A stretch of DNA of 64,000 nucleotides from Chrysomallon squamiferum (lineage: Eukaryota; Animalia; Mollusca). The stretch is taken from the NCBI GenBank assembly GCA_012295275.1, contig CM022665.1, positions 49,042,001 through 49,106,000 on the forward strand. The letters are read 5' to 3'. Positions 1 through 61,560 of the stretch are shown here, one piece after another. The notes beneath the pieces are model-generated. The model had not been told where the DNA came from and ran no database searches. It saw only the letters and a list, made by a program, of their open reading frames with translations. Position numbers and translations under genes: made by a program. The stretch's first letter is position 1. Every line of letters begins with the position of its first letter.

Positions 1-67
1 GGTGGTGTAACGGTTAGCATGGTTGCCTTCCAAGCAGTCGATCCGGGTTCGACTCCCGGCCGACGCA
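1..67 (+). tRNA. tRNA-Gly(TCC), 5' end cut by window edge
   Basis: Anticodon arm GTTGC-CTTCCAA-GCAGT, T arm CCGGG-TTCGACT-CCCGG, ends CCGACGCA; TTTT follows. Confidence 0.93.
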
Positions 68-638
68 TCCGTAATAATTTTGCTTCTTGAATGCATTCAT
101 TTTACCACAGCAAGTCCGACTGTAGTCCACTACTGATTAATATTCTCTTGCTGTTACCTTCCCGACTCACATAAATCATAACAAAGTGTTCGAAACATTC
201 AGCCTCGAAACGAAGGTATGAGGGAACATGTACTCGAAGGCTTCAAAACCTTTTCAGTTGTCTTAAGACAAATCACAATATTATTTATTGTCACAGAAAA
301 TACGTCAACTGAAAACTCACCCGGTCAGTGTTGTGATAACAATCGAAAGATGAGGAAAAAGGGCGTCTTCATGTAGCAACAGCTTGGTGTTGCCAAGAGC
401 TTTGGGCTAAAGTGGACTTCCTCCTTCAAGACGACGGATATTACGTTTAAGCAACACGATTTCAACAGATTTTTTTTCGTTACCTGTTATGTTATTCCGC
501 GTTTAGATAGCTTTGAAGGAGTGTGGCATCAAAGACGGGGACGATTTACACATTGTAGTAACAGTGTTTTTTCCTTTCCAACGCCTGCGATGAAGAAAAC
601 ACCGTGTCAGGACACATTTCTAAAATGCACATAATATG

Positions 639-710
639 GCGTCGGTGGTGTAACGGTTAGCATGGTTGCCTTCCAAGCAGTCGATCCGGGTTCGACTCCC
701 GGCCGACGCA
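639..710 (+). tRNA. tRNA-Gly(TCC)
   Basis: 72-nt cloverleaf: acceptor GCGTCGG/CCGACGC, anticodon TCC, A and B boxes, downstream TTTT terminator. Confidence 0.97.
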
Positions 711-1293
711 TCCGTACCTTTTGTTCGTTCATCCATTCATTCAATCATTCATATTTTTTTAGAAGTTATAAAATTTCATCACCACCCATTCACGCGAAAC
801 TTCCGATCTATTCCTAGTGAAGTACACAGTTTCTAAACACGTGTCTGACCCAATTAAATATTTGAAAATCTAATTATGAAAGCATAATGAAAATTCTATC
901 GATGCAATGCAAAGTTTCAAGACCTTTACAGAACATTTTAAAGGGAAACGTCACAAGTACGCACGTTATTTTCTTCGGGGTAATAACGTTTTTATATCGA
1001 GAAGGTTAATTTTGAAGGTTTGGCCACAAGCGCTAGCAACAGCTTGGTATTTACTACCTGTCGCTAAGCGCAGACTGACATGCGCATCGAAAGCTAATGT
1101 GCTACGCTTTATAATGAATTATTTTACTGCTCTAATAACTGAAAACGATGTTAAGAAATCGTTTGGAAATAATTATAATGTTTACACGAACAACAAACAC
1201 GAAAACAAAATTCAATTTACTTTCACCATATGGTGAAAGAGTACATCCCTGTGAAGAACTTGAAATAAACGTGATATGAATGTACATCGTGTG

Positions 1294-1365
1294 GCGTCGG
1301 TGGTGTAACGGTTAGCATGGTTGCCTTCCAAGCAGTCGATCCGGGTTCGACTCCCGGCCGACGCA
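1294..1365 (+). tRNA. tRNA-Gly(TCC)
   Basis: Identical 72-nt gene. Confidence 0.97.
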
Positions 1366-1942
1366 TCCGTAATAATTTTGCTTCTTGAATGCATTCATTT
1401 TACCACAGCAAGTCCGACTGTAGTCCACTACTGATTAATATTCTCTTGCTGTTACCTTCCCGACTCACATAAATCATAACAAAGTGTTCGAAACATTCAG
1501 CCTCGAAACGAAGGTATGAGGGAACATGTACTCGAAGGCTTCAAAACCTTTTCAGTTGTCTTAAGACAAAATCACAATATTATTTATTGTCACAGAAAAT
1601 ACGTCAACTGAAAACTCACCCGGTCAGTGTTGTGATAACAATCGAAAGATGAGGAAAAAGGGCGTCTTCATGTAGCAACAGCTTGGTGTTGCCAAGAGCT
1701 TTGGGCTAAAGTGGACTTCCTCCTTCAAGACGACGGATATTACGTTTAAGCAACACGATTTCAACAGATTTTTTTTTCGTTACCTGTTATGTTATTCCGC
1801 GTTTAGATAGCTTTTGAAGGAGTGTGGCATCAAAGACGGGGACGATTTACACATTGTAGTAACAGTGTGTTTTTTTCCTTTCCAACGCCTGCGATGAAGA
1901 AAACACCGTGTCAGGACACATTTCTAAAATGCACATAATATG

Positions 1943-2013
1943 GCGTCGGTGGTGTAACGGTTAGCATGGTTGCCTTCAAGCAGTCGATCCGGGTTCGACT
2001 CCCGGCCGACGCA
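1943..2013 (+). tRNA. tRNA-Gly(TCC) with 1-nt deletion in the anticodon loop (CTTCAA); sequencing error or defective copy
   Basis: Reads TGCCTTCAAGCA instead of TGCCTTCCAAGCA; otherwise identical. Confidence 0.8.
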
Positions 2014-2601
2014 TCCATCCGTACCTTTGTTCGTTCATCCATTCATTCAATCATTCATATTTTTTTTAGAAGTTATAAAATTTCATCACCACCCATTCAC
2101 GCGAAACTTCCGATCTATTCCTAGTGAAGTACACAGTTTCTAAACACGTGTCTGACCCAATTAAATATTTGAAAATCTAATTATGAAAGCATAATGAAAA
2201 TTCTATCGATGCAATGCAAAGTTTCAAGACCTTTACAGAACATTTTAAAGGGAAACGTCACAAGTACGCACGTTGTTTTCTTCGGGGTAATAACGTTTTT
2301 ATATCGAGAAGGTTAATGTTGAAGGTTTGGCCACAAGCGCTAGCAACAGCTTGGTATTTACTACCTGTCGCTAAGCGCAGACTGACATGCGCATCGAAAG
2401 CTAATGTGCTACGCTTTATAATGAATTATTTTACTGCTCCTAATAACTGAAAACGATGTTAAGAAATCGTTTGGAAATAATTATAATGTTTACACGAACA
2501 ACAAACACGAAAACAAAATTCAATTTACTTTCACCATATGGTGAAAGAGTACATCCCTGTGAAGAACTTGAAATAAACGTGATATGAATGTACATCGTGT
2601 G

Positions 2602-2673
2602 GCGTCGGTGGTGTAACGGTTAGCATGGTTGCCTTCCAAGCAGTCGATCCGGGTTCGACTCCCGGCCGACGCA
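2602..2673 (+). tRNA. tRNA-Gly(TCC)
   Basis: Identical 72-nt gene. Confidence 0.97.
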
Positions 2674-3249
2674 TCCGTAATAATTTTGCTTCTTGAATGC
2701 ATTCATTTTACCACAGCAAGTCCGACTGTAGTCCACTACTGATTAATATTCTCTTGCTGTTACCTTCCCGACTCACATAAATCATAACAAAGTGTTCGAA
2801 ACATTCAGCCTCGAAACGAAGGTATGAGGGAACATGTACTCGAAGGCTTCAAAACCTTTTCAGTTGTCTTAAGACAAATCACAATATTATTTATTGTCAC
2901 AGAAAATACGTCAACTGAAAACTCACCCGGTCAGTGTTGTGATAACAATCGAAAGATGAGGAAAAAGGGCGTCTTCATGTAGCAACAGCTTGGTGTTGCC
3001 AAGAGCTTTGGGCTAAAGTGGACTTCCTCCTTCAAGACGACGGATATTACGTTTAAGCAACACGATTTCAACAGATTTTTTTTTCGTTACCTGTTATGTT
3101 ATTCCGCGTTTAGATAGCTTTTGAAGGAGTGTGGCATCAAAGACGGGGACGATTTACACATTGTAGTAACAGTGTGTTTTTTGCCTTTCCAACGCCTGCG
3201 ATGAAGAAAACACCGTGTCAGGACACATTTCTAAAATGCACATAATATG

Positions 3250-3321
3250 GCGTCGGTGGTGTAACGGTTAGCATGGTTGCCTTCCAAGCAGTCGATCCGG
3301 GTTCGACTCCCGGCCGACGCA
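3250..3321 (+). tRNA. tRNA-Gly(TCC)
   Basis: Identical 72-nt gene. Confidence 0.97.
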
Positions 3322-3906
3322 TCCGTACCTTTTGTTCGTTCATCCATTCATTCAATCATTCATATTTTTTTTAGAAGTTATAAAATTTCATCACCACCCA
3401 TTCACGCGAAACTTCCGATCTATTCCTAGTGAAGTACACAGTTTCTAAACACGTGTCTGACCCAATTAAATATTTGAAAATCTAATTATGAAAGCATAAT
3501 GAAAATTCTATCGATGCAATGCAAAGTTTCAAGACCTTTACAGAACATTTTAAAGGGAAACGTCACAAGTACGCACGTTATTTTCTTCAGGGTAATAACG
3601 TTTTTATATCGAGAAGGTTAATGTTGAAGGTTTGGCCACAAGCGCTAGCAACAGCTTGGTATTTACTACCTGTCGCTAAGCGCAGACTGACATGCGCATC
3701 GAAAGCTAATGTGCTACGCTTTATAATGAATTATTTTACTGCTCCTAATAACTGAAAACGATGTTAAGAAATCGTTTGGAAATAATTATAATGTTTACAC
3801 GAACAACAAACACGAAAACAAAATTCAATTTACTTTCACCATATGGTGAAAGAGTACATCCCTGTAAAGAACTTGAAATAAACGTGATATGAATGTACAT
3901 CGTGTG

Positions 3907-3974
3907 GCGTCGGTGGTGTAACGGTTAGCATGGTTGCCTTCCAAGCAGTCGATCCGGGTTCGACTCCCGGCCGA
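3907..3974 (+). pseudogene. tRNA-Gly(TCC) truncated at nt 68 by the retrotransposon 5' end
   Basis: Matches the gene through ...CCCGGCCGA, then TG and the element start ACTTCCGG replace CGCA. Confidence 0.92.
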
Positions 3975-4059
3975 TGACTTCCGGTTATGGTGGCGTCGAG
4001 TGTGGACGCGTTTCACATCGGCTCTCGCTTCGGAAAGGTTTTGTTGTAAACTAAGTGTT

Positions 4060-5220
4060 ATGTCTTGGGCGGAAGAATCTGAAAATTACGAAGAAAAGAT
4101 CAAAGATATGAATTTAAAAAAAGAAGGAATGAGAAAAAATGTTTTTAAAAAAGAATGCACTGTGATTGTAAATGTAGAAGATAACAAGAAAATTTCAGCA
4201 GGCGACATGATAGATTTTGTAAGTGGCCAGGTGGGTGATGTGATAAAAGCGTGCGTACCGAAAGAATCCGACTCTTATGAAATAACACTAGAAGATATTA
4301 TACAAGCGAGAATGATTACGGAAATTGATGAAACAGAATTGAAAGGTCTAAAAATAAAGGCGAGAATTTTGAAATCTGAAACTGTAGTAGTTTCCTTTTT
4401 GCACTTGCCTGCCTACATTGAAGATGAAGAAATTGAAGAAAAATTGAAACAAATGGAAATAGAAATTTTATCACCAATTTATAGAAGGCTATACAAAGGG
4501 ACAAAAATTGCAGATGGAACAAGATATGTGAGAGTGAAATTTCCACCCGGAATAAAAAGTTTACCATACTCAATGAAATTTAAGACTTATGAAGGAATAA
4601 AATATTTTCGTGTTTTACATGACAATCAAATAAAAGTCTGTTACAACTGTATGGCGGATAATCATTTGTTGAAAGACTGTCCAAATATAAGGTGTCATAA
4701 CTGTAAACAAAAAGGACATTTTGCTAGAAACTGCCCGAACATATTTCTGTGTGAAAAGTGTGGAAACAAAGAGGATGAATGTGAGTGTTGGTCAGAGTAT
4801 GACAGCGATGAACAAAAAAACAGCGACAGTGACAGTGATGGTATGGAATATAATGTAAAATCAAAGGAGAAAAAAGAAATTGAAGCAGAAAGTATCCAGA
4901 GGATAAATACAACAGAAATGGAAATCAACAAGGAACAACAAAAATCAGAAAATGGAGAAAACCAAGAAAATCCCCTGATAAAAAACACCAAAGTGAAAAT
5001 TACTAACAAGGAAGCTGGAACCATCGAAGCAGAAAATAGTAAGCAGAGTAAAACAAAGCGTCGAACGAGATTGATCAAGCGTCCATCAGAAGAAAAACTG
5101 TGGAGCTTGGTAGAAAATAGAAAACAAAAAAAGAGACAAGCAGCACACATGAAAAGTGTGAGAGAAAGTGTTGCCAGGGTAATGAATGAGTATGGGGGGG
5201 AGGATATAGACAAGATATAG
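4060..5220 (+). CDS. Tx1 ORF1 nucleic-acid-binding protein (386 aa, CCHC zinc knuckles)
   Basis: ATG MSWAEESE at 4060; CYNCMADNHLLKDC and CHNCKQKGHFARNC knuckles; LPAYIED...DGTRYVRV core typical of Tx1/ZCCHC3-like ORF1. Confidence 0.92.
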   Translation: MSWAEESENYEEKIKDMNLKKEGMRKNVFKKECTVIVNVEDNKKISAGDMIDFVSGQVGDVIKACVPKESDSYEITLEDIIQARMITEIDETELKGLKIKARILKSETVVVSFLHLPAYIEDEEIEEKLKQMEIEILSPIYRRLYKGTKIADGTRYVRVKFPPGIKSLPYSMKFKTYEGIKYFRVLHDNQIKVCYNCMADNHLLKDCPNIRCHNCKQKGHFARNCPNIFLCEKCGNKEDECECWSEYDSDEQKNSDSDSDGMEYNVKSKEKKEIEAESIQRINTTEMEINKEQQKSENGENQENPLIKNTKVKITNKEAGTIEAENSKQSKTKRRTRLIKRPSEEKLWSLVENRKQKKRQAAHMKSVRESVARVMNEYGGEDIDKI

Positions 5221-5232
5221 AATATTTTAAAA

Positions 5233-8200
5233 ATGGGTAATAGTTCACTAATTTTTCTACTTCTAACTATGATCTTGTCTATAAATGTAAACGGACTGAG
5301 AGATATTGAGAAATTAAATTCAGTTTTTGCAACATTTAAAAGTAAACATGCAAATATTATTTTTCTACAGGAAACATTTTGGGATAATGACTTCATTGAG
5401 AGATATAAACATTTATGGAAGGAAATATATTTTATAATAATTGTCCAAATAAAAAAGAAGGGGTGTAGCAATACTGGTATCAAAAGAATGTCCTTATAAG
5501 TTTACATTTAATAGTTGCGACACTGAAGGCAGGATTTTAAAAATTAATACGAAAATAGATGAAGAAGAATACAGTTTTATAAATGTATATGCACCAAATA
5601 ATATTGAAGAAAGAATTTTATTTTTTAAAGGATTATGTAAATTTGTGGATTTAAAAAATACAATAATGGCAGGAGATTTTAATGACATTTTAGATCCTAA
5701 TTTAGATTTGGGCATTAATAATAAAACTTTCAATATAAAAAGTAGTAATGAATTACAGTCAGTTATTTTTAATTATAATTTAGTTGATATTTGGCGACAC
5801 AGAAATCCAGATAAAAGGCAATTTACTAGATCTCAAATAGTTGAAAAAACTATAAAACAGTCAAGAATTGATTTATTCTTAATTTCTAGAAATTTATTGC
5901 AGTTTATAAGTAATGTATACATATCCTATACCTCGGTTAGTGATCACAATTTTTTATCACTTAAAATAGATTTTTCTCATGTAGAGAGAGGTCAAGGTAT
6001 TTGGATCTTTAATAATGAATTGTTGAAAGATGAAAGTTTTTGTAAAGCTATTATTGAAGTTATTAATAATGCTTCTGAGTGTCCTTTGTTACAGACTGAA
6101 CCTAGTGTTTGGTGGGACAACTTAAAATATTAAAATGAAAACATGTGCAAGAAATTTTGCAATAAAAAAAGAGAAAATCAGATAACAAAAAAATATTATA
6201 ATATACAAAATGCTTTGAAAAGAGAATATGCTAAACTAGCTGTAAATAATCATCATGATTTGAGTAACATACAAATTTTAGAAGAAAAATTAAAATTAAT
6301 TGAGAGATCTAAATGTAATGGTGCTATTTTGAGATCTAAAGCTCATTGGAATCTAGATATGGATAGAAATACCACATTTTTTCTCAGTTTAGAAAAATCA
6401 AAACAAGAATCAAATTCTATTAAAGAGCTAAAAACAGTAAATGGATTAACAAGAAAAACAGAAGATATATTACAATATGCTTATGACTTTTATTCAAAAT
6501 TATTTACGCAAGAAAATGTAGATATTATTAAACAGGAAGAAATAATAAATTTAATATCAAATAAACTAAAAGAATCTGAAAGTGAAAACTGTGAGAAAGA
6601 CATTACAATTGAAGAATTAACTGAAGCTTTAAAAGAAATGAATAGAAATAAATCACCTGGTTTGGATGGTCTAACAGTAGAATTTTATGTTAAATTCTGG
6701 GAAAATTTTAAAAATTTCTTTCATATCAGAAATAAGAAATGTTGTCACGCAGTATGAAAAAAGGAGTAATTAGTTTATTTTACAAGAAAAAAGGAGATAA
6801 AGCAGACCTAAAAAATTTCAGACCTATCAGCCTTTTAAATGTAGATTATAAAATTATTGCTAAAGTTCTTGCAAATCGTCTTAAACAAGTAATGTCAACT
6901 ATTATTTCATCAGAACAAAGCTGTTGTGTAAAAGGAAGAGATATTGTTGACAATATTATGTCAGTAAGAGATATTATAGATATTGTCGAGTTAAATAATA
7001 CAGAAGGGTATATAGTTAAAATAGATCAAGAGAAAGCATTTGATAGAGTATCACATAGTTTTATTTTAAAAGTTTTGAAAAAATTCAATTTTGGTGATAA
7101 TTTTATAAAGTGGATTAAAATACTATATAATAATATAAAAAGTTGTGTAAAAATTAATGGACATTTAACACCTTTTTTCAATATTACAAGAGGGGTTAGA
7201 CAAGGATGTCCAATATCAATGATGCTTTATGCTATTGTAGCTGAACCCTTAAATAATTTAATTAAAAAAAGACATAGCATGAATGGAATTAGGATAACAA
7301 ATGAACTTAATTCTTTATTATTTCAGCATGCAGATGATACTACAGTAACTGTCTGTGATGCTCAGTCAGTAGAAAATGTTTTTAATACAATAAATATGTA
7401 TTGTAGTGCTACAGGGGCAAAAGTCAATGTAGATAAGTCAGAAGTACTTTATCTTGGTAAAACCATGATTGAAAACTTATCTTTTAACATTCCAATATCA
7501 ATAAATAAAAACTATGTTAAAATTCTAGGTATATATTTAGGACCAAATAAACTATTATGTGAAACTTTGAACTGGAAAAATAAATTAGCTAAAATGTCTA
7601 ATCTAATTAACTTATGGAGTCAAAGGAAACTTACTTTGCACGGAAAAGCTGAAGTATGGAATACTTTATTAACATCTAGACTGTGGTATATCATTAGCAC
7701 AATAAATGTACCAAATTGGGTAGAAAATGAAATTTATAAATTATTTTGTAAATTTTTGTGGGAAGGGAAAACATCTTTAATAAAATATTCAACAATAATT
7801 GGAAATAAAATGTCGGGTGGACTAAATATTCAAGATATTTCATTAAAGAAAATGGCTTTTCGAATAAAAATGTTAAAGAAATATTTTGATAATAATTTTA
7901 AAAATGTGTGGAAATATACAATGTCAATATTTCTTGAAAAATATATGAATATGAATCTAAATTATGACATTTTTAAAATAGTATACAGTAAAGAAGCTTT
8001 AAAAGTTATTAATCCTTTTTATGCTGAAATGTTATCAGCTTGGGACTATGTTAATAATGGAGAACGTAATTTCCCACTTGATACAGATGAAATATTGTCT
8101 CAGCCACTTTTTCAAAATCCATTCATTAAATATAAAAACAAATTATTATTATTTAGTTCTTTTATAAAAAGTGGAATAGTCAAAGTGGCTGATATTGCTT

Positions 8201-9101
8201 ATGAAGTAATACCAGGTTTTCTTCCTTTTACAGCTATTGTAGAAATTATTCATGAAAAATCTCCAGAATTATCCAAAAACCAAATTTATATAGCTTACAA
8301 TGTTATTAAGAAATCACTTCCAGATGAATGGAAAAGTTCTATTAACAGAAATGCTAAAAAATTAACTTCTAATAAAGATTTGTTTTTGTTTCAGAATAAT
8401 GAAATGATAAATGTCAATAAATTTACAGCTAAAATAATTTATTCTATTTTAATTTTAAAAACTTTAAAGCACCAACTTGTGAAGAAAAATGGAATGAGCT
8501 TGGTTTTAATATATTCTGGAGACCAGTTTGGAAATGGATACACTATAGTGATAAATTTACTGAATTTATAGACTTAGATTTTAGAATAGTTCATCATATA
8601 ATATATACATATAACAAATTATATAAATATGGCAAAATCTCATCTAGTGTATGTCCAGTGTGTTTGAAGGATGATGAAGATTTGTGCCATTTATTTTTGT
8701 ATTGTGAAGAATTGAAGGAATTAATATCAATCTTTCATGAAATATGTATTTATATATTTAAGAAAACAGGGTTTTCTCTAGAACAATTAAAAAGATTATT
8801 AATATTTGGATGTTATCTCAAAATTGAAAATAGTACAATAGAATTTATTAATATTATTCTTTCAATTTATAGAATAACAGTGTTCAAAAGGCGTGTAATA
8901 GCTCAAATGAAAGGAACAAATATCAATATAATACATTTTTTTAGAAATTATATGTATCAGTGCTTTAAAATCATTCTAAATCAATATCGTATTCAAAACA
9001 AACTTTCAATTTTTATTAACAAATATGTTAAGAACAATATTTTCCTAGAACTAAAAGATGACATACTTATTTTCAAATATCCTTTGGAAAGCTACAAATA
9101 A
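5233..9101 (+). CDS. Tx1 ORF2 APE endonuclease / reverse transcriptase, interrupted by several indels
   Basis: APE motifs INVNGL, LQET, GDFN, SRID, SDH; RT motifs KSPGLDG, RPISLLN, DQEKAFD, GVRQGCP, QHADD; C-terminal CxxC-x8-H-x4-C. Breaks near 5420, 6130, 6725 (~15-bp deletion vs copy 2) and 8460. Confidence 0.9.
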
Positions 9102-9343
9102 TCAATATAGATAAATCATGGAAATGGATAAAAGAATTAATACTATAAAATACTGTAAATATATATGAATATTCCAAATAAATAAGTATGCATGCATGTG
9201 AGTGTGAATGAGTGTGACTGAGTGTGACTGAGTGTGTGAGAGGAAATAGTTTTTTGTTATTGTTATTTACAGTTGTAATGTTATTTTAATTGTGTACAAC
9301 TGGTGATTATACTAATAAAGAAAAAAAAAAAAAAAAAAAAAAA

Positions 9344-9445
9344 TGGAACGATACAGAGAAGATCCGGGTTCGATGTTTGGGTAAAAATGTTTTGAATGCA
9401 AGGATTTGACACGCAAATTTCTTTGAAGTCCGTTCCATATTTTTT
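9344..9445 (+). pseudogene. 3' part of a U6 snRNA gene after copy 1 poly(A); corrupted or blended
   Basis: TGGAACGATACAGAGAAGAT...GCAAGGAT..GACACGCAAATT..GAAG..CGTTCCATATTTTTT, with tRNA-Gly-like CCGGGTTCGA intruding. Confidence 0.8.
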
Positions 9446-10143
9446 GAATTGTTTTTCGATGAGGACATTTTATGAAACATAAAATATTGTTACATTACCT
9501 TTTGTTGGATTTTATAAATAAAAATAAAGAATAAAAAATGCATCTGATTTCTAATCAAGAAAATTGCGTAACGCGTCGAAATATTATTTTTCATATAGCC
9601 TATTTTTTAACGGTTATATTAATTTTAAATAAATTTTATTACATATTTTTTTTTTTTTTTTTTTTTTTTTTAATACGATTATTATTTTTTTTAAAAAACA
9701 TAGTTTTTATTTAATTTAATTAATTTAATAATTTTATTTTTTGTTCCGCATTTTGTAACTTGATAACCCAAAAACTTTTTTTTTTATGAGGTCTTTCCCA
9801 TCATGTCTTCATAGATAAGGCGTTTCATTCGTGACCCGTGGTCAAGGAAAACACGATATGTTCAAAAGACAACATGTGATGTTAGTAACACTAAACAGCT
9901 ATGAAATGAAAATTTTCTCCATATCGAATTACCTTGTATGAATGTTGTCGAGGAATGCTAATACTATTGACATTCCGTAAACAAATTAATAAAGATAAAA
10001 AAAAAAAAAAAAGTGAAATTTATAACACGACATTTGCTTCTAATTATGCAAGTTTCGAAACCCTTTGAGCGTAACTGGAAAAAAAACTCGATTTTGCATT
10101 ATGTTTTAAAAAAAAAGAGTGAGCACATAAAGTTGTGAAAAAT

Positions 10144-10189
10144 TGTTCACGTAATATATTTAATTTACATATACTGAAAAATGGAACGA
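10144..10189 (+). pseudogene. 5' part of a U6 snRNA gene interrupted by copy 2
   Basis: TGTTCACG...TACATATACTGAAAAATGGAACGA matches U6 nt ~5-38, preceded by a noisy version of the U6 upstream spacer. Confidence 0.8.
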
Positions 10190-10272
10190 ACTTCCGGTTA
10201 TGGTGGCGTCGAGTGTGGACGCGTTTCACATCGGCTCTCGCTTCGGAAAGGTTTGGTTGTAAACTAAGTATT

Positions 10273-11436
10273 ATGTCTTGGGCGGAAGAATCAGAAAATT
10301 ACGAAGAAAAGATGAAAGATATGAATTTAAAAAAAGAAGGAATGAGAAAAAAATGTTTTTAAAAAAAGAATGCACTGTGATTGTAAATGTAGAAGATAAC
10401 AAGAAAATTTCAGCAGGCGACATGATAGATTTTGTAAGTGGCCAGGTGGGTGATGTGATAAAAGCGTGCGTACCGAAAGAATCCGACTCTTATGAAATAA
10501 CACTAGAAGATATTATACAAGCGAGAATGATTACGGAAATTGATGAAACAGAATTGAAAGGTCTAAAAAATAAAGGCGAGAATTTTGAAATCTGAAACTG
10601 TAGTAGTTTCCTTTTGCACTTGCCTGCCTACATTGAAGATGAAGAAATTGAAGAAAAATTGAAACAAATGGAAATAGAAATTTTATCACCAATTTATAGA
10701 AGGCTATACAAAGGGACAAAAATTGCAGATGGAACAAGATACGTGAGAGTGAAATTTCCACCCGGAATAAAAAGTTTACCATACTCAATGAAATTTAGGA
10801 CTTATGAAGGAATAAAATATTTTCGTGTTTTACATGACAATCAAATAAAAGTATGTTACAACTGCATGGCGGATAATCATTTGTTGAAAGACTGTCCAAA
10901 TATAAGGTGTCATAACTGTAAAAAAAAAAGGACATTTTGCTAGAAACTGCCCGAACATATTTCTGTGTGAAAAGTGTGGAAACAAAGAGGATGAATGTGA
11001 GTGTTGGTCAGAGTATGACAGCGATGAACAAAAAAACAGCGACAGTGACAGTGATGGTATGGAATATAATGTAAAATCAAAAGGAGAAAAAGAAATTGAA
11101 GCAGAAAGTATCCAGAGGATAAATACAACAGAAATGGAAATCAACAAGGAACAACAAAAATCAGAAAATGGAGAAAAACCAAGAAAATCCCTGATAAAAC
11201 ACCAAAGTGAAAATTACTAACAAAGGAAGCTGGAACCATCGAAGCAGAAAATAGTAAGCAGAGTAAAACAAAGCGTCGAACGAGATTGATCAAGCGTCCA
11301 TCAGAAGAAAAACTGTGGAGCTTGGTAGAAAATAGAAAACAAAAAAAGAGACAAGCAGCACACATGAAAAGTGTGAGAGAAAGTGTTGCCAGGGTAATGA
11401 ATGAGTATGGGGGGGGAGGATATAGACAAGATATAG
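10273..11436 (+). CDS. Tx1 ORF1, copy 2 (homopolymer frameshifts)
   Basis: Colinear with 4060-5220; frame breaks fall in A/T/G runs. Confidence 0.85.
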
Positions 11437-11448
11437 AATATTTTAAAA

Positions 11449-23167: not shown

Positions 23168-24607
23168 ATGGCTGTGAGAAGAGTGGACGTGTTTGGAAGT
23201 CCGGGAGAAAAGAGAAGTCTGGAAGAAGACGAGGAAGTTAGTTTCGATGAATATAAATATCGCTGTTTTTGTGGAACTACCTTTCGCCGCGTCGGTTCTG
23301 TGAACTGGGAGGTGTTTGTCTGGTTGACGTCATTTCCTGCTGAACTACAGGAAGTCAAACATTTCCGAAATGACTGCACGTTTTGTAATTATTCAATGGA
23401 CATCGCAAGTGATAGTTCTTCTGGCTTTATTAAAGCGGAAGTACGTAAAACAAAGGGAGACAACGTCTTTACTCTGGAAGGAAAGAATCTGCAACATTTG
23501 TTAACTCTTCTCTCTGAACGGGAGAAAATTGAAACGAACGATGTTCTTGTTACTGACGAAAGAGAGGAGGAAAAACAGAGTGATAACGAGATTTGCACTA
23601 GAGAAGAAACTGAACACGAACAAAATAACACTGCCACCAGGCAACTGTCTACAGAATCAAAACAAACTGATCACGAATTATCTTCTTGTGAGAATGTTTC
23701 GGAGTCGAGACTTCGAGATGAAGACGTCGAGGAATGTGTTAAACCGTACACGTATAAAATGACGTCGCGGCCGCGTGGTGTTTGTATGATAATCAGCAAT
23801 GAAGACTTCTACAGCCTGTCGGACGCCAGCAGGCTGGAGAAACGCCACGGAGCGAAACAAGACGTTGAAAAGCTTTCCGCAATGTTCTCTCGACTCCACT
23901 TCGAGGTGGAGCTATTCACGAATCTCCGAGACAACGAGGTCGTCATGACGGCGAAGCACATGTCGCTCAAGGACCACTCAGCCTGTGACGCCTTTGTCTG
24001 CTGCATCTTGTCTCACGGAACTCAGGGCTCGGTGTTCGGCGTCAACCACGTCGCAGTGCCCATCAGCGAGGTCCTGTCTCAGTTCCGGTCCCGCGCGTGC
24101 CACACTCTAGCCGGTAAGCCGAAACTTTTCTTTATCCAGGCTTGTCAGGGTCTGGAGCCTCAGATGGGCGTGGCTGTCACTGACGCACCGTCAATGCCAC
24201 ACCCAGCCAAACTAGCGGCGGACGGGACTGACTTCCTGGTGGCGTACTCGACAGAACCAGGATACGTCGCGTTCAGACACAAGGAATCTGGTTCTTACTT
24301 CATTGACGCGCTAGTCAAAAATCTTGAAGGCTTGTCCGACTACAGCATTCACGACGTCATGGCCAAGGTCTGCAGCGACGTCTCCCAGCTCAACATCAAC
24401 AACGGCTTCAAGCAGGTGCCGCAGTTCACGTCCACTCTGACGAAGCAGCTGTTTTTATGTGGAAAGTCGGTGATCGTCGTTGATGATGACGAGTCCCGAT
24501 CGTCGCTGGAGGAAAACACGACATCATCGCCGTCCTTGCAACACGACGTTACACCTGACAAACAACATTCTGAGACAAAGAAGTCGCTAACGTGTGTCGT
24601 TTCATGA
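23168..24607 (+). CDS. Caspase (peptidase C14A, QACQG caspase-8-like catalytic domain), single-exon ORF, 479 aa
   Basis: YKMTSRPRGVCMIISN, CCILSHG (catalytic His), KPKLFFIQACQG (catalytic Cys), DFLVAYST, GSYFI, KQVPQFTSTLTKQL. Confidence 0.95.
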   Translation: MAVRRVDVFGSPGEKRSLEEDEEVSFDEYKYRCFCGTTFRRVGSVNWEVFVWLTSFPAELQEVKHFRNDCTFCNYSMDIASDSSSGFIKAEVRKTKGDNVFTLEGKNLQHLLTLLSEREKIETNDVLVTDEREEEKQSDNEICTREETEHEQNNTATRQLSTESKQTDHELSSCENVSESRLRDEDVEECVKPYTYKMTSRPRGVCMIISNEDFYSLSDASRLEKRHGAKQDVEKLSAMFSRLHFEVELFTNLRDNEVVMTAKHMSLKDHSACDAFVCCILSHGTQGSVFGVNHVAVPISEVLSQFRSRACHTLAGKPKLFFIQACQGLEPQMGVAVTDAPSMPHPAKLAADGTDFLVAYSTEPGYVAFRHKESGSYFIDALVKNLEGLSDYSIHDVMAKVCSDVSQLNINNGFKQVPQFTSTLTKQLFLCGKSVIVVDDDESRSSLEENTTSSPSLQHDVTPDKQHSETKKSLTCVVS

Positions 24608-25432: not shown

Positions 25433-25792
25433 ATATTATTATTATTATTTATTTATTCTTATTGTTCAACATACGGGTCGAAGGATTTTTATTTACTTAT
25501 TTTTATATTTATTATTATTATTTTTTTTTAAATAATACACACATATTCTTTATGTTGTTGTTCATGATGATGCTGATGATGAAAATAACGAAGTCTGACA
25601 TTAGCAGCTTTTCCAAATGAGCAAATTAATCTATCCGCCAGTTAATAAAATAATAATACAAATAATAATAAAATAATAATAATAATAATAAAAAATGAAA
25701 ATTTTGAAAGAAAAGAAAGAAAAGATGAAAAAAGATAGAAAGAAAAAGATTCACTATTATTCATAAAGTCTCAGTTTAATTACCTAATATCC

Positions 25793-25865
25793 GGCCTCGT
25801 GGCCTAATGGATAAGGCGTCTGACTTCGAATCAGAAGATTGCGAGTTCGAGTCTCGTCGGGGTCG
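25793..25865 (+). tRNA. tRNA-Arg(TCG)
   Basis: Consensus 73-nt gene. Confidence 0.96.
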
Positions 25866-26021
25866 ATTATTAATTTTATTTTACATGTACAGTTGTTATA
25901 TGTTACACTTTATTGTTAACAAAGTCTGGTGTTCAGTGATAAAAACGTAAACAATAATTATATATTGGAGATTTAACAATTCATTTTTATAGTAAATACA
26001 CATGTTTTTGTCCAAACAGAT

Positions 26022-60824: not shown

Positions 60825-61424
60825 GAAGAACAAGAAGATAAAAATGATTATTATCTTTTTTTATATGATACTGATAATGATCATTATGATGATGATTATC
60901 ATCATGAAATAATAAAAATGAGCAAAACATTTACAGCGTAGACTGAACAACAACAAAAAAAATATATATAATGTCTAATATTTTACTAATTTTAAAATTT
61001 CGCCAGTGTCTAATTCTCCGGTTCCTGCTAATGAACGCGCGAAGTGTGTTTCCGAGTCCCTGGTGAGTTGTTTCCTCTAGATTCTCCGCTGTTAACATTT
61101 ATACTCTTAACAGTTAAACGATTTCAGTCCGCGGCAGACGACATCACAAGAGTAATGAGATTTAAAAGTTATACTTACGTAGAGTGTTCTTTTAACTTGT
61201 ATTTTGCATCTCTGTTTCTGTTTACAGGCAGTGTGTTTCGTAAAAACATCGGTTCGCTTTGGAAACGATCCATTGTCTGTAACGTAATACTGACGTTTCA
61301 GTTAGTGGAGAAATATTTAAGAAGAAACAGTCATTTGGCACTGATAGGTCTGGCGAAGTTTCAGACAATAAAATCGTATTTAAAATGTGTTCCACACTGT
61401 TCAGATGAGGGGCGGATCCAAAAT

Positions 61425-61560
61425 TCTTTTGTGGAAATTGTCAAAGTGGTTGATATTGCGTATGAAGTAATTTCAGGTTTTCTCACTGTTTCCGCTATTG
61501 TTGAAGTTATTCAGGACAAACGTCCAAATTTACCCAAAGAACAAATAATTAATGCTCTGG
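61425..61560 (+). mobile_element. Internal fragment of an older, related Tx1 ORF2
   Basis: IVKVVDIAYEVISGFLTVSAIVEVIQDKRPNLPKEQI aligns with IVKVADIAYEVIPGFLPFTAIVEIIHEKSPELSKNQI of the intact element. Confidence 0.85.

Follow-up and report, generated by a model that had tools for sequence, protein, structure and literature searches.

The window analyzed here is the whole 64,000-nt stretch of the Chrysomallon squamiferum assembly (GCA_012295275.1, contig CM022665.1, positions 49,042,001 to 49,106,000), whose first part is a tRNA-Gly(TCC) tandem array, followed by two copies of a non-LTR retrotransposon, the second of which is located within a U6 gene (Table 1). Six tRNA-Gly(TCC) units precede a seventh, type-A unit at 3907 that is interrupted by copy 1 of the element; one of the tRNA-Gly copies (1943-2013) lacks a single anticodon base, probably a homopolymer error. 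The interrupted gene corresponds to nucleotides 1-68 of the tRNA-Gly of the array; at the point where the intact gene goes on with CGCA, the window contains TG, followed at 3977 by the element head. The 725 nt that lead up to this junction differ from an earlier array unit at 5 positions, indicating a normal, clean type-A unit, and the junction itself is sharp, without long homology. Within the window, the 20-nt element head is present only at 3977 and 10190, and the two heads do not differ over their first 65 nt. The junction between the tRNA-Gly gene and the element is thus as originally predicted, with tRNA nucleotides 1-68, TG, the complete head and an intact upstream flank; it is real in the assembly and probably real in the DNA. 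The dinucleotide TG also directly precedes the element head in 2 of the 5 other head junctions detected in public sequencing runs. The CGA that ends both 5' junctions is indeed present in the window but cannot be considered a motif, given that it consists of only three letters in an uncertain register and that none of the 5 other junctions at the head ends in CGA; a sixth junction from the public runs does end in CGA but belongs to a related family and is joined 8 nt further in. Nor does the intact flank rule out a template-switch chimera, as had been proposed, because a template jump combined with homologous joining is still compatible with such a flank.

Table 1. Features of the window at and around the two copies of the element
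Feature	Position	Strand	Remarks
tRNA-Gly(TCC) tandem array	1..3906	+	type-A and type-B spacers in alternation; dimer ~1308 bp
Type-A tRNA-Gly(TCC), nt 1-68	3907..3974	+	both internal boxes (A and B) intact; flanks copy 1 on the 5' side
TG at the junction	3975..3976	+	tRNA nt 69-70 with a C-to-T change (C69 to T), or element-derived or untemplated
Tx1-type non-LTR retrotransposon, copy 1, full length	3977..9343	+	A23 tail at 9321-9343
ORF1, 386 aa, CCHC zinc knuckles	4060..5220	+	copy 1
ORF2 (APE endonuclease, reverse transcriptase, zf-RVT)	5233..9101	+	copy 1
20 nt of U6 directly behind the copy 1 tail	9344..9363	+	
Garbled U6 repeat unit between the copies	9344..10189	+	U6 3' part, spacer, U6 5' part
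Mosaic in which U6 3' sequence is mixed with three collinear tRNA-Gly-unit words	9361..9432	+	
Element copy 2, full length, in U6	10190..15573	+	target duplication up to 13 bp
Clean U6 3' part behind copy 2	15574..15654	+	
Intact U6 snRNA gene	16270..16375	+	empty site

The element is a young Tx1-type LINE. ORF1 contains a region similar to PF00098 (E 1.2e-7, in 4060-5217), and ORF2 encompasses, in this order, PF03372, PF00078 and a weak match to PF13966 (E 4e-4, under the cut-off), the same set of domains that is carried by the ORF2 of intact relatives of ~1280 aa. The Tx1 features found include a CCHC-containing ORF1 separate from ORF2; the APE endonuclease, reverse transcriptase (RT) and C-terminal zinc finger; a hairpin loop of Tx1L length; and, in copy 2, a poly(A) tail (15557-15577) together with a target-site duplication. 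In a quick RT tree, built with no outgroup and no named Tx1 or L1 references, the element groups with elements of 5S and tRNA genes and with BAC82613.1, a zebrafish pol-like protein that we take to belong to the 2004 Tx1 survey. The best PDB match of the endonuclease is LTx, described as an L1 endonuclease that carries the Tx1L hairpin loop, two residues longer than that of L1 (PMC1950540); the alignment with LTx is ungapped in the loop, and the L1 chains require a 2-residue gap. Aligned over 5408 columns, the two copies show 29 substitutions and 63 indel columns (99.5% alike by substitutions), and their endonucleases are one residue apart (T/M), outside the targeting loop, which is identical. 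Given this near identity, the target switch considered in the original prediction is ruled out for these two copies, insofar as it would involve a change of the enzyme. In the assembly, the reading frame of ORF2 in copy 1 is interrupted, both by indels of one base and by a deletion of 16 bp near 6725; many of the single-base frameshifts are missing from contigs of four public runs and may be either assembly errors or private changes.

Copy 2 is properly inserted in U6: it starts behind the 5' part of the gene, its tail is followed by the 3' part, and the duplicated target corresponds to U6 nucleotides 26-38 (10177-10189 and 15574-15586, with 12 of the 13 positions alike); the left edge of the duplication merges with the tail, giving a length of 9-13 bp. 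The rest of the window contains twelve dispersed tRNA-Arg(TCG) genes on both strands (16895-60596), some with similar upstream flanks (84% between 16762-16969 and 25652-25866), and a single-exon ORF with a caspase domain (23138-24607, 489 aa, PF00656, E 3.8e-51) located between two of these genes. Two overlapping open frames of 233 and 237 aa (18691-20072), with no Pfam match, possibly represent one frameshifted gene. About 800 bp from a tRNA-Arg gene lies a short, older fragment of a related Tx1 ORF2 (61392-61547, 43% aa identity to the protein P0001).

The 3' side of copy 1 has no clean tRNA junction: U6 comes behind the tail, and the target duplication of this copy is unreadable. Taken at face value, this arrangement lacks the element-tRNA 3' junction that would match the 5' one. 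When the 846 bp between the two copies are aligned with the unit behind copy 2 (857 columns), there are 38 substitutions, with 124 columns inserted and 11 deleted; by comparison, another pair of U6 spacers shows 8 substitutions and 5 gap columns in 291. The noise sets in at the tail, with 1-3 differences per 100 nt at 8800-9199 and 6-30 at 9300-10189. The segment between the copies is likely a poor consensus. Natural decay of this U6 unit is unlikely, considering that pieces of other repeats are interleaved with it and that the adjoining element is 99.5% like its sister copy. The garbled spacer also includes a 26-nt piece of the element 3' end and tail, of the copy 2 type (9987-10012), probably a consensus artefact.

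Within the first 90 nt behind the copy 1 tail, there are exact words of 13, 9 and 7 nt that are collinear with tRNA-Gly from nucleotide 45 onward and with the type-A downstream flank, the type that is expected for the gene at 3907. In the window, the 13-mer is found only in the seven tRNA-Gly genes and behind this tail, whereas the gapped three-word pattern, which was picked post hoc, is restricted to position 9361 and the three type-A units that are complete, and is present in none of 100 shuffles. Two less biased tests of the mosaic agree with the word pattern, with modest margins: the chain length is 29 at the mosaic versus a maximum of 25 in 5956 background windows, and the two-template score is 107-111 versus a mean of 88.5 and a maximum of 106 in 400 random templates, a thin margin given that shuffled templates reached 109 once in 300. 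We infer that the consensus was built from conflicting reads, some of which ran from the element tail into tRNA-Gly. The presence of such words in a mixed consensus points to a real tRNA-Gly insertion, the 3' flank of which has been replaced by the U6 array via the repeat. The sequence that links the tRNA-Gly and U6 sites looks mis-assembled, and the fusion of the two arrays, which the original prediction offered as an alternative, is probably right, either as an assembly join or as recombination through the element.

Seven DNA-like or unlabelled public runs from three studies hold 56-67% of the sampled words, and the contigs of five of these (X1-X5) were compared with the window; of the further runs, X10-X12 hold a small share, and X8 and X9 are RNA runs. 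Among the listed contigs of X1-X5, none bridges the tRNA-Gly junction. The 15 of 16 joints listed include none at either end of copy 1, but poly(A) rows are partly skipped, and a missing contig proves nothing; the 24 of 31 loose ends listed include neither a poly(A)-to-tRNA-Gly end nor the U6 or the tRNA-Gly junction of the window. The depth in X2 is 0 at 3938-3968, and that in X4 at 3969-4030 is fully accounted for by two non-bridging records. The garbled spacer between the copies also has low cover in the runs, which carries no weight here because garbled sequence in itself reduces mapping. Most of the head junctions occur in only one run; the family therefore looks polymorphic, and the absence of a private insertion is to be expected, yet lends it no support.

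Seven rows among the same 24 of 31 loose ends precede the element head and represent six sequences, namely, one similar to tRNA-Ala, one similar to tRNA-Asp, three without a recognizable RNA gene (3 of the 5 other neighbors of this head) and one that belongs to the related family. The tRNA-Ala-like neighbor, from X2, shares 25 identical nt with the tRNA-Ala(TGC) of the related locus L012, which places the junction near nucleotide 35; the tRNA-Asp-like neighbor, from X5, matches the tRNA-Asp of L098 at 27 of 30 positions (by eye), with the junction near nucleotides 39-41. These neighbors are 30-nt loose ends, each from a single run, and might instead represent SINE heads or sequence of a sister family. 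The Ala-like motif lies inside tRNA-Ala in 3 of 4 loci and inside tRNA-Phe in 1; the Asp-like motif was found inside a tRNA in none of 11 viral loci, and its identity rests on the tRNA-Asp of L098. A 33-nt sequence that precedes the head in X2 has no match in the window at 3 mismatches; X4 contains a record with a loose part of equal length, compared by length and not by letters, at a depth of 640. This neighbor may be the commonest context of the element, either its main target or an amplified repeat unit with an insertion. In X3, the depth is 1800-2371 for the element contigs, 2094 for the tRNA array and 128 for the U6 spacer. Since the depth of the element is close to that of the tRNA array and well above that of the U6 spacer, U6 units of that type are unlikely to hold most of the copies, a weak hint, depth being a weak measure, that U6 is a minor target. 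The element head had no matches in metagenome or viral contigs. The related family shares 40 nt of the head (window positions 3985-4024) and diverges at 4024 in X3, X4 and X5; its 5' neighbor in X4 has blocks of 7 and 12 nt in common, by eye, with the tRNA-Gly spacer at 411-436, which suggests that this family is inserted in the spacer of a related array.

The comparison with relatives covered 119 related loci, 34 of which were scanned with Rfam. U6 was found in none of the 119 loci and, above the cut-off, in none of the 5 assemblies behind the closest loci; viral contigs yielded no relatives. The closest relative for which both flanks are available, L098 (4371-8563; 72% aa identity), lies inside a tRNA-Asp gene of a tandem array; it is 5'-truncated and joined after nucleotide 10 of the tRNA, which resumes at nucleotide 21. 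In L016 (1464-7633; 44% aa identity), both ORFs are intact, the element starts behind nucleotide 38 of a tRNA-Lys that is part of a tandem repeat, and the 3' end is in tRNA-Tyr at nucleotides 21-22; the truncated tRNA at this end has no Rfam match, and its 16-nt start is located in tRNA-Tyr in 44 of 54 loci and in tRNA-Asn in 3. Like copy 1 in the window, L016 is flanked by one gene at its 5' end and another at its 3' end, and it is likely also a collapse of copies at two targets. The 3' junctions of L098 and L016 at tRNA nucleotides 21-22 possibly define an undescribed lineage that targets the tRNA D-loop. More distant relatives are found in or at 5S (L099), U2 (L112, L134 and L020), U5 (L074 and L084) and U1 (L050). 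In the quick tree of 48 rows, drawn from 32 of the 119 loci, with 5 removed for being short, and from 20 of the 120 listed proteins, the RT from the window groups with L096, L097, L098 and P0001 (SH-aLRT 96), with L016 in a neighboring group; the U2-inserted elements belong to the other half of the tree, and the 5S-inserted one forms a separate branch. The 5' region of L096 contains no RNA gene, and its 3' end is off the contig. Another distant relative, L111 (2151-8267), has a tRNA-Gln(CTG) gene on either side; its head is far downstream of the first of these genes, whereas its tail stops just a few bases before the second. In five loci (L100, L101, L102, L104 and L112), on contigs binned into a bacterial genome, U1, U2 and 5S are linked in tandem repeats of the animal type, which carry several Tx1-like insertions.

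The explanation toward which we lean is that the tRNA-Gly copy is a true insertion, made by an endonuclease that tolerates several sites in multicopy small-RNA genes, and fused to the U6 array via the 5.4-kb repeat. The use of more than one small-RNA gene is borne out by the U6 insertion with its duplication, the tRNA-Gly words behind the tail, the Ala- and Asp-like neighbors, and the location of L098 in tRNA-Asp. To this extent, the original claim of one family at two unrelated Pol III genes stands; the exact tRNA-Gly junction, however, is absent from the contigs and loose ends listed for the independent runs, and the evidence for the specific pair of U6 and tRNA-Gly is indirect. By analogy with established TPRT, the APE domain would nick the bottom strand, the poly(A) RNA would be copied from this nick, and a second nick downstream would set the 5' junction. 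At tRNA-Gly, the first nick would have to be at or before nucleotide 46, yielding a duplication of at least 23 bp that ends at nucleotides 68-70, and the real locus would then consist of tRNA nucleotides 1-68, the element, its tail, the tRNA from nucleotide 46 or earlier, and the type-A flank. The assembler, or ectopic recombination in one haplotype, may have swapped the tRNA 3' flank for the U6 array, with reads from the tRNA locus leaving their words in the consensus at 9361-9432. The targeting would involve loose DNA recognition in accessible arrays, with neither a target switch nor tethering to Pol III; the same family, with a near-identical endonuclease, is present at tRNA-Gly and U6. We found no clear sequence likeness between the two sites. 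Counting against this explanation, the relatives nick tRNAs at nucleotides 21-22 and have 5' junctions that end at nucleotides 10-41, so that nucleotides 68-70 are off the pattern; a nick at nucleotide 21 of tRNA-Gly would require a duplication of 48-50 bp. A bolder generalization, which we hold to be doubtful, is that one active Tx1 family with one endonuclease routinely inserts inside the unrelated Pol III genes U6, tRNA-Gly, tRNA-Ala and tRNA-Asp at fixed sites, reading the gene class or DNA shape instead of one sequence; this would be the first non-LTR family reported in U6, within an undescribed invertebrate Tx1 lineage that cuts many tRNA types next to the D-loop.

The 3' flank of copy 1 begins with U6 at the very site that is used by copy 2, which is compatible with a single U6-primed event whose 5' end was joined elsewhere, such that the tRNA was never a target of the endonuclease. 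Under this unlikely scenario, the RT would have finished the element and then jumped to tRNA-Gly RNA or annealed to the nearby tRNA array, with the DNA between the arrays deleted or rearranged. The 5' junction is close to the 3' end of the tRNA, where a template jump would land, and the 24 of 31 loose ends listed for other samples do not include it; moreover, LINE 5' junctions have been described as often arising by annealing or with extra bases (PMC4245944). What this scenario leaves unexplained are the tRNA-Gly and type-A flank words behind the tail and the fact that the flank is garbled from the tail onward whereas the element body is consistent.

A rather improbable route is 3' transduction with microhomology priming, in which case the true junction would be the sequence at 9344-9373, and a donor in U6 would have hit tRNA-Gly as a rare off-target. 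The RNA of the U6-inserted donor would read 20 nt into U6, and its terminal GAU would pair with the nicked tRNA-Gly at nucleotides 45-47; the insert would then comprise the element, the tail and 20 nt of U6, with a tRNA duplication of 21-24 bp. The sequence at 9344-9373 does consist of 20 nt of U6, the common GAT and then 10 further exact tRNA nucleotides, and annealing of read-through RNA to the target has been described as an aid for R2Ol (PMC6530143). A mixed consensus that switches at the common GAT would yield the same string, however, and beyond 9373 the sequence is not clean tRNA.

We give little credence to the possibility that the tRNA-element DNA does not exist at all and that a false join or a chimeric long read produced the junction. 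The surrounding assembly is poor, many frameshifting indels of copy 1 are missing from the contigs of four runs, and the junction appears in none of the contigs and loose ends listed for the independent runs; nevertheless, the sequence around the junction is clean, without any long homology that could seed a false join, tRNA-Gly words are also present at the other end of copy 1, and the other 5' junctions are each found in only one or two runs, so that a private insertion would be expected to be absent. Tethering to Pol III, by which proteins of the element would bind TFIIIB/TFIIIC or Pol III, as in TRE5-A and Ty1/Ty3, so that any Pol III gene could be cut nearby, is very improbable: although all four recognizable neighbors of the head are of Pol III types (U6, tRNA-Gly, tRNA-Ala-like and tRNA-Asp-like) and the U6 and tRNA-Gly sites have no common sequence that we could find, tethered elements are described as landing at a distance from the gene, not inside it as here (PMC3706591), 3 of the 5 other neighbors include no recognizable RNA gene, none of the 12 tRNA-Arg genes in the window carries an element head or tail, and relatives use the Pol II-transcribed U1, U2 and U5.

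Target choice in Tx1 elements is thought to depend on the APE endonuclease, and usually one target is assigned per family. If our favored explanation is true, a family that uses U6 as well as several tRNA genes while its enzyme stays the same would represent a natural intermediate in the rise of new specificities. The natural pairs of enzyme and target (the element described here, L098 with tRNA-Asp, and L016 with tRNA-Lys or tRNA-Tyr) would form a small set for nicking assays and for site-specific gene-insertion tools. The analysis also calls for caution in that collapsed assemblies can produce mismatched 5' and 3' flanks at such elements.

Ty3 of yeast is associated with Pol III genes. TRE5-A of Dictyostelium and Ty1 of yeast similarly resemble the present element in being retroelements located at Pol III genes of differing sequence (PMC3706591, PMC5391098, PMC7459421). 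In these systems, contacts with host proteins direct insertion away from the Pol III gene, at a set distance, whereas both types of junctions in the window are inside genes, within transcribed sequence. The LINEs NeSL-1_TV, LIN15_SM and LIN25_SM are described as specific for tRNA genes (PMC4640811) but, in contrast to the present element, are of the RLE type, with a restriction-like endonuclease and one tRNA type per family. The gene bodies of U6 and tRNAs are also targeted by Dada-U6 and Dada-tA/tY/tK, among which single lineages use several tRNA types and a shift from U6 to tRNA-Ala has been proposed (PMC8869645, PMC3706591). Dada elements, however, are DDE cut-and-paste transposons with 6-7 bp duplications, an unrelated enzyme and a specific target for each family.

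Among the Tx1 elements themselves, Keno is described as inserting in U2, Mutsu in 5S, and Dewa in the tRNA-Leu spacer of tRNA arrays (PMC3706591, PMC4494074), and U5 is listed as a Tx1 target in a figure legend (PMC4494074). In view of these targets and of the Tx1-Mar families, the original assertion that targeting of this kind is not known for Tx1 was too strong. The use of U6 and tRNA bodies by one family was not found in print: a search of the open literature, with Repbase, subscription papers and supplements outside its scope, yielded neither a non-LTR family in U6 nor a Tx1 family in tRNA gene bodies. The crocodilian Tx1-Mar families use two dissimilar regions, a preference rather than strict specificity (PMC4494074); both regions are within one DNA transposon, whereas the element described here is found in different RNA genes. 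Keno, Mutsu and Dewa are like this element in having two ORFs, the APE and RT domains, a poly(A) tail, and insertion in the sense orientation at a defined site in multicopy small-RNA arrays. The window, however, contains neither U2 nor 5S, and its tRNA junction is within the gene, at nucleotides 68-70, not in an array spacer. The present element differs from the three known families in the use of U6 nucleotides 26-38 and tRNA bodies and in the apparent presence of one family at several unrelated targets.
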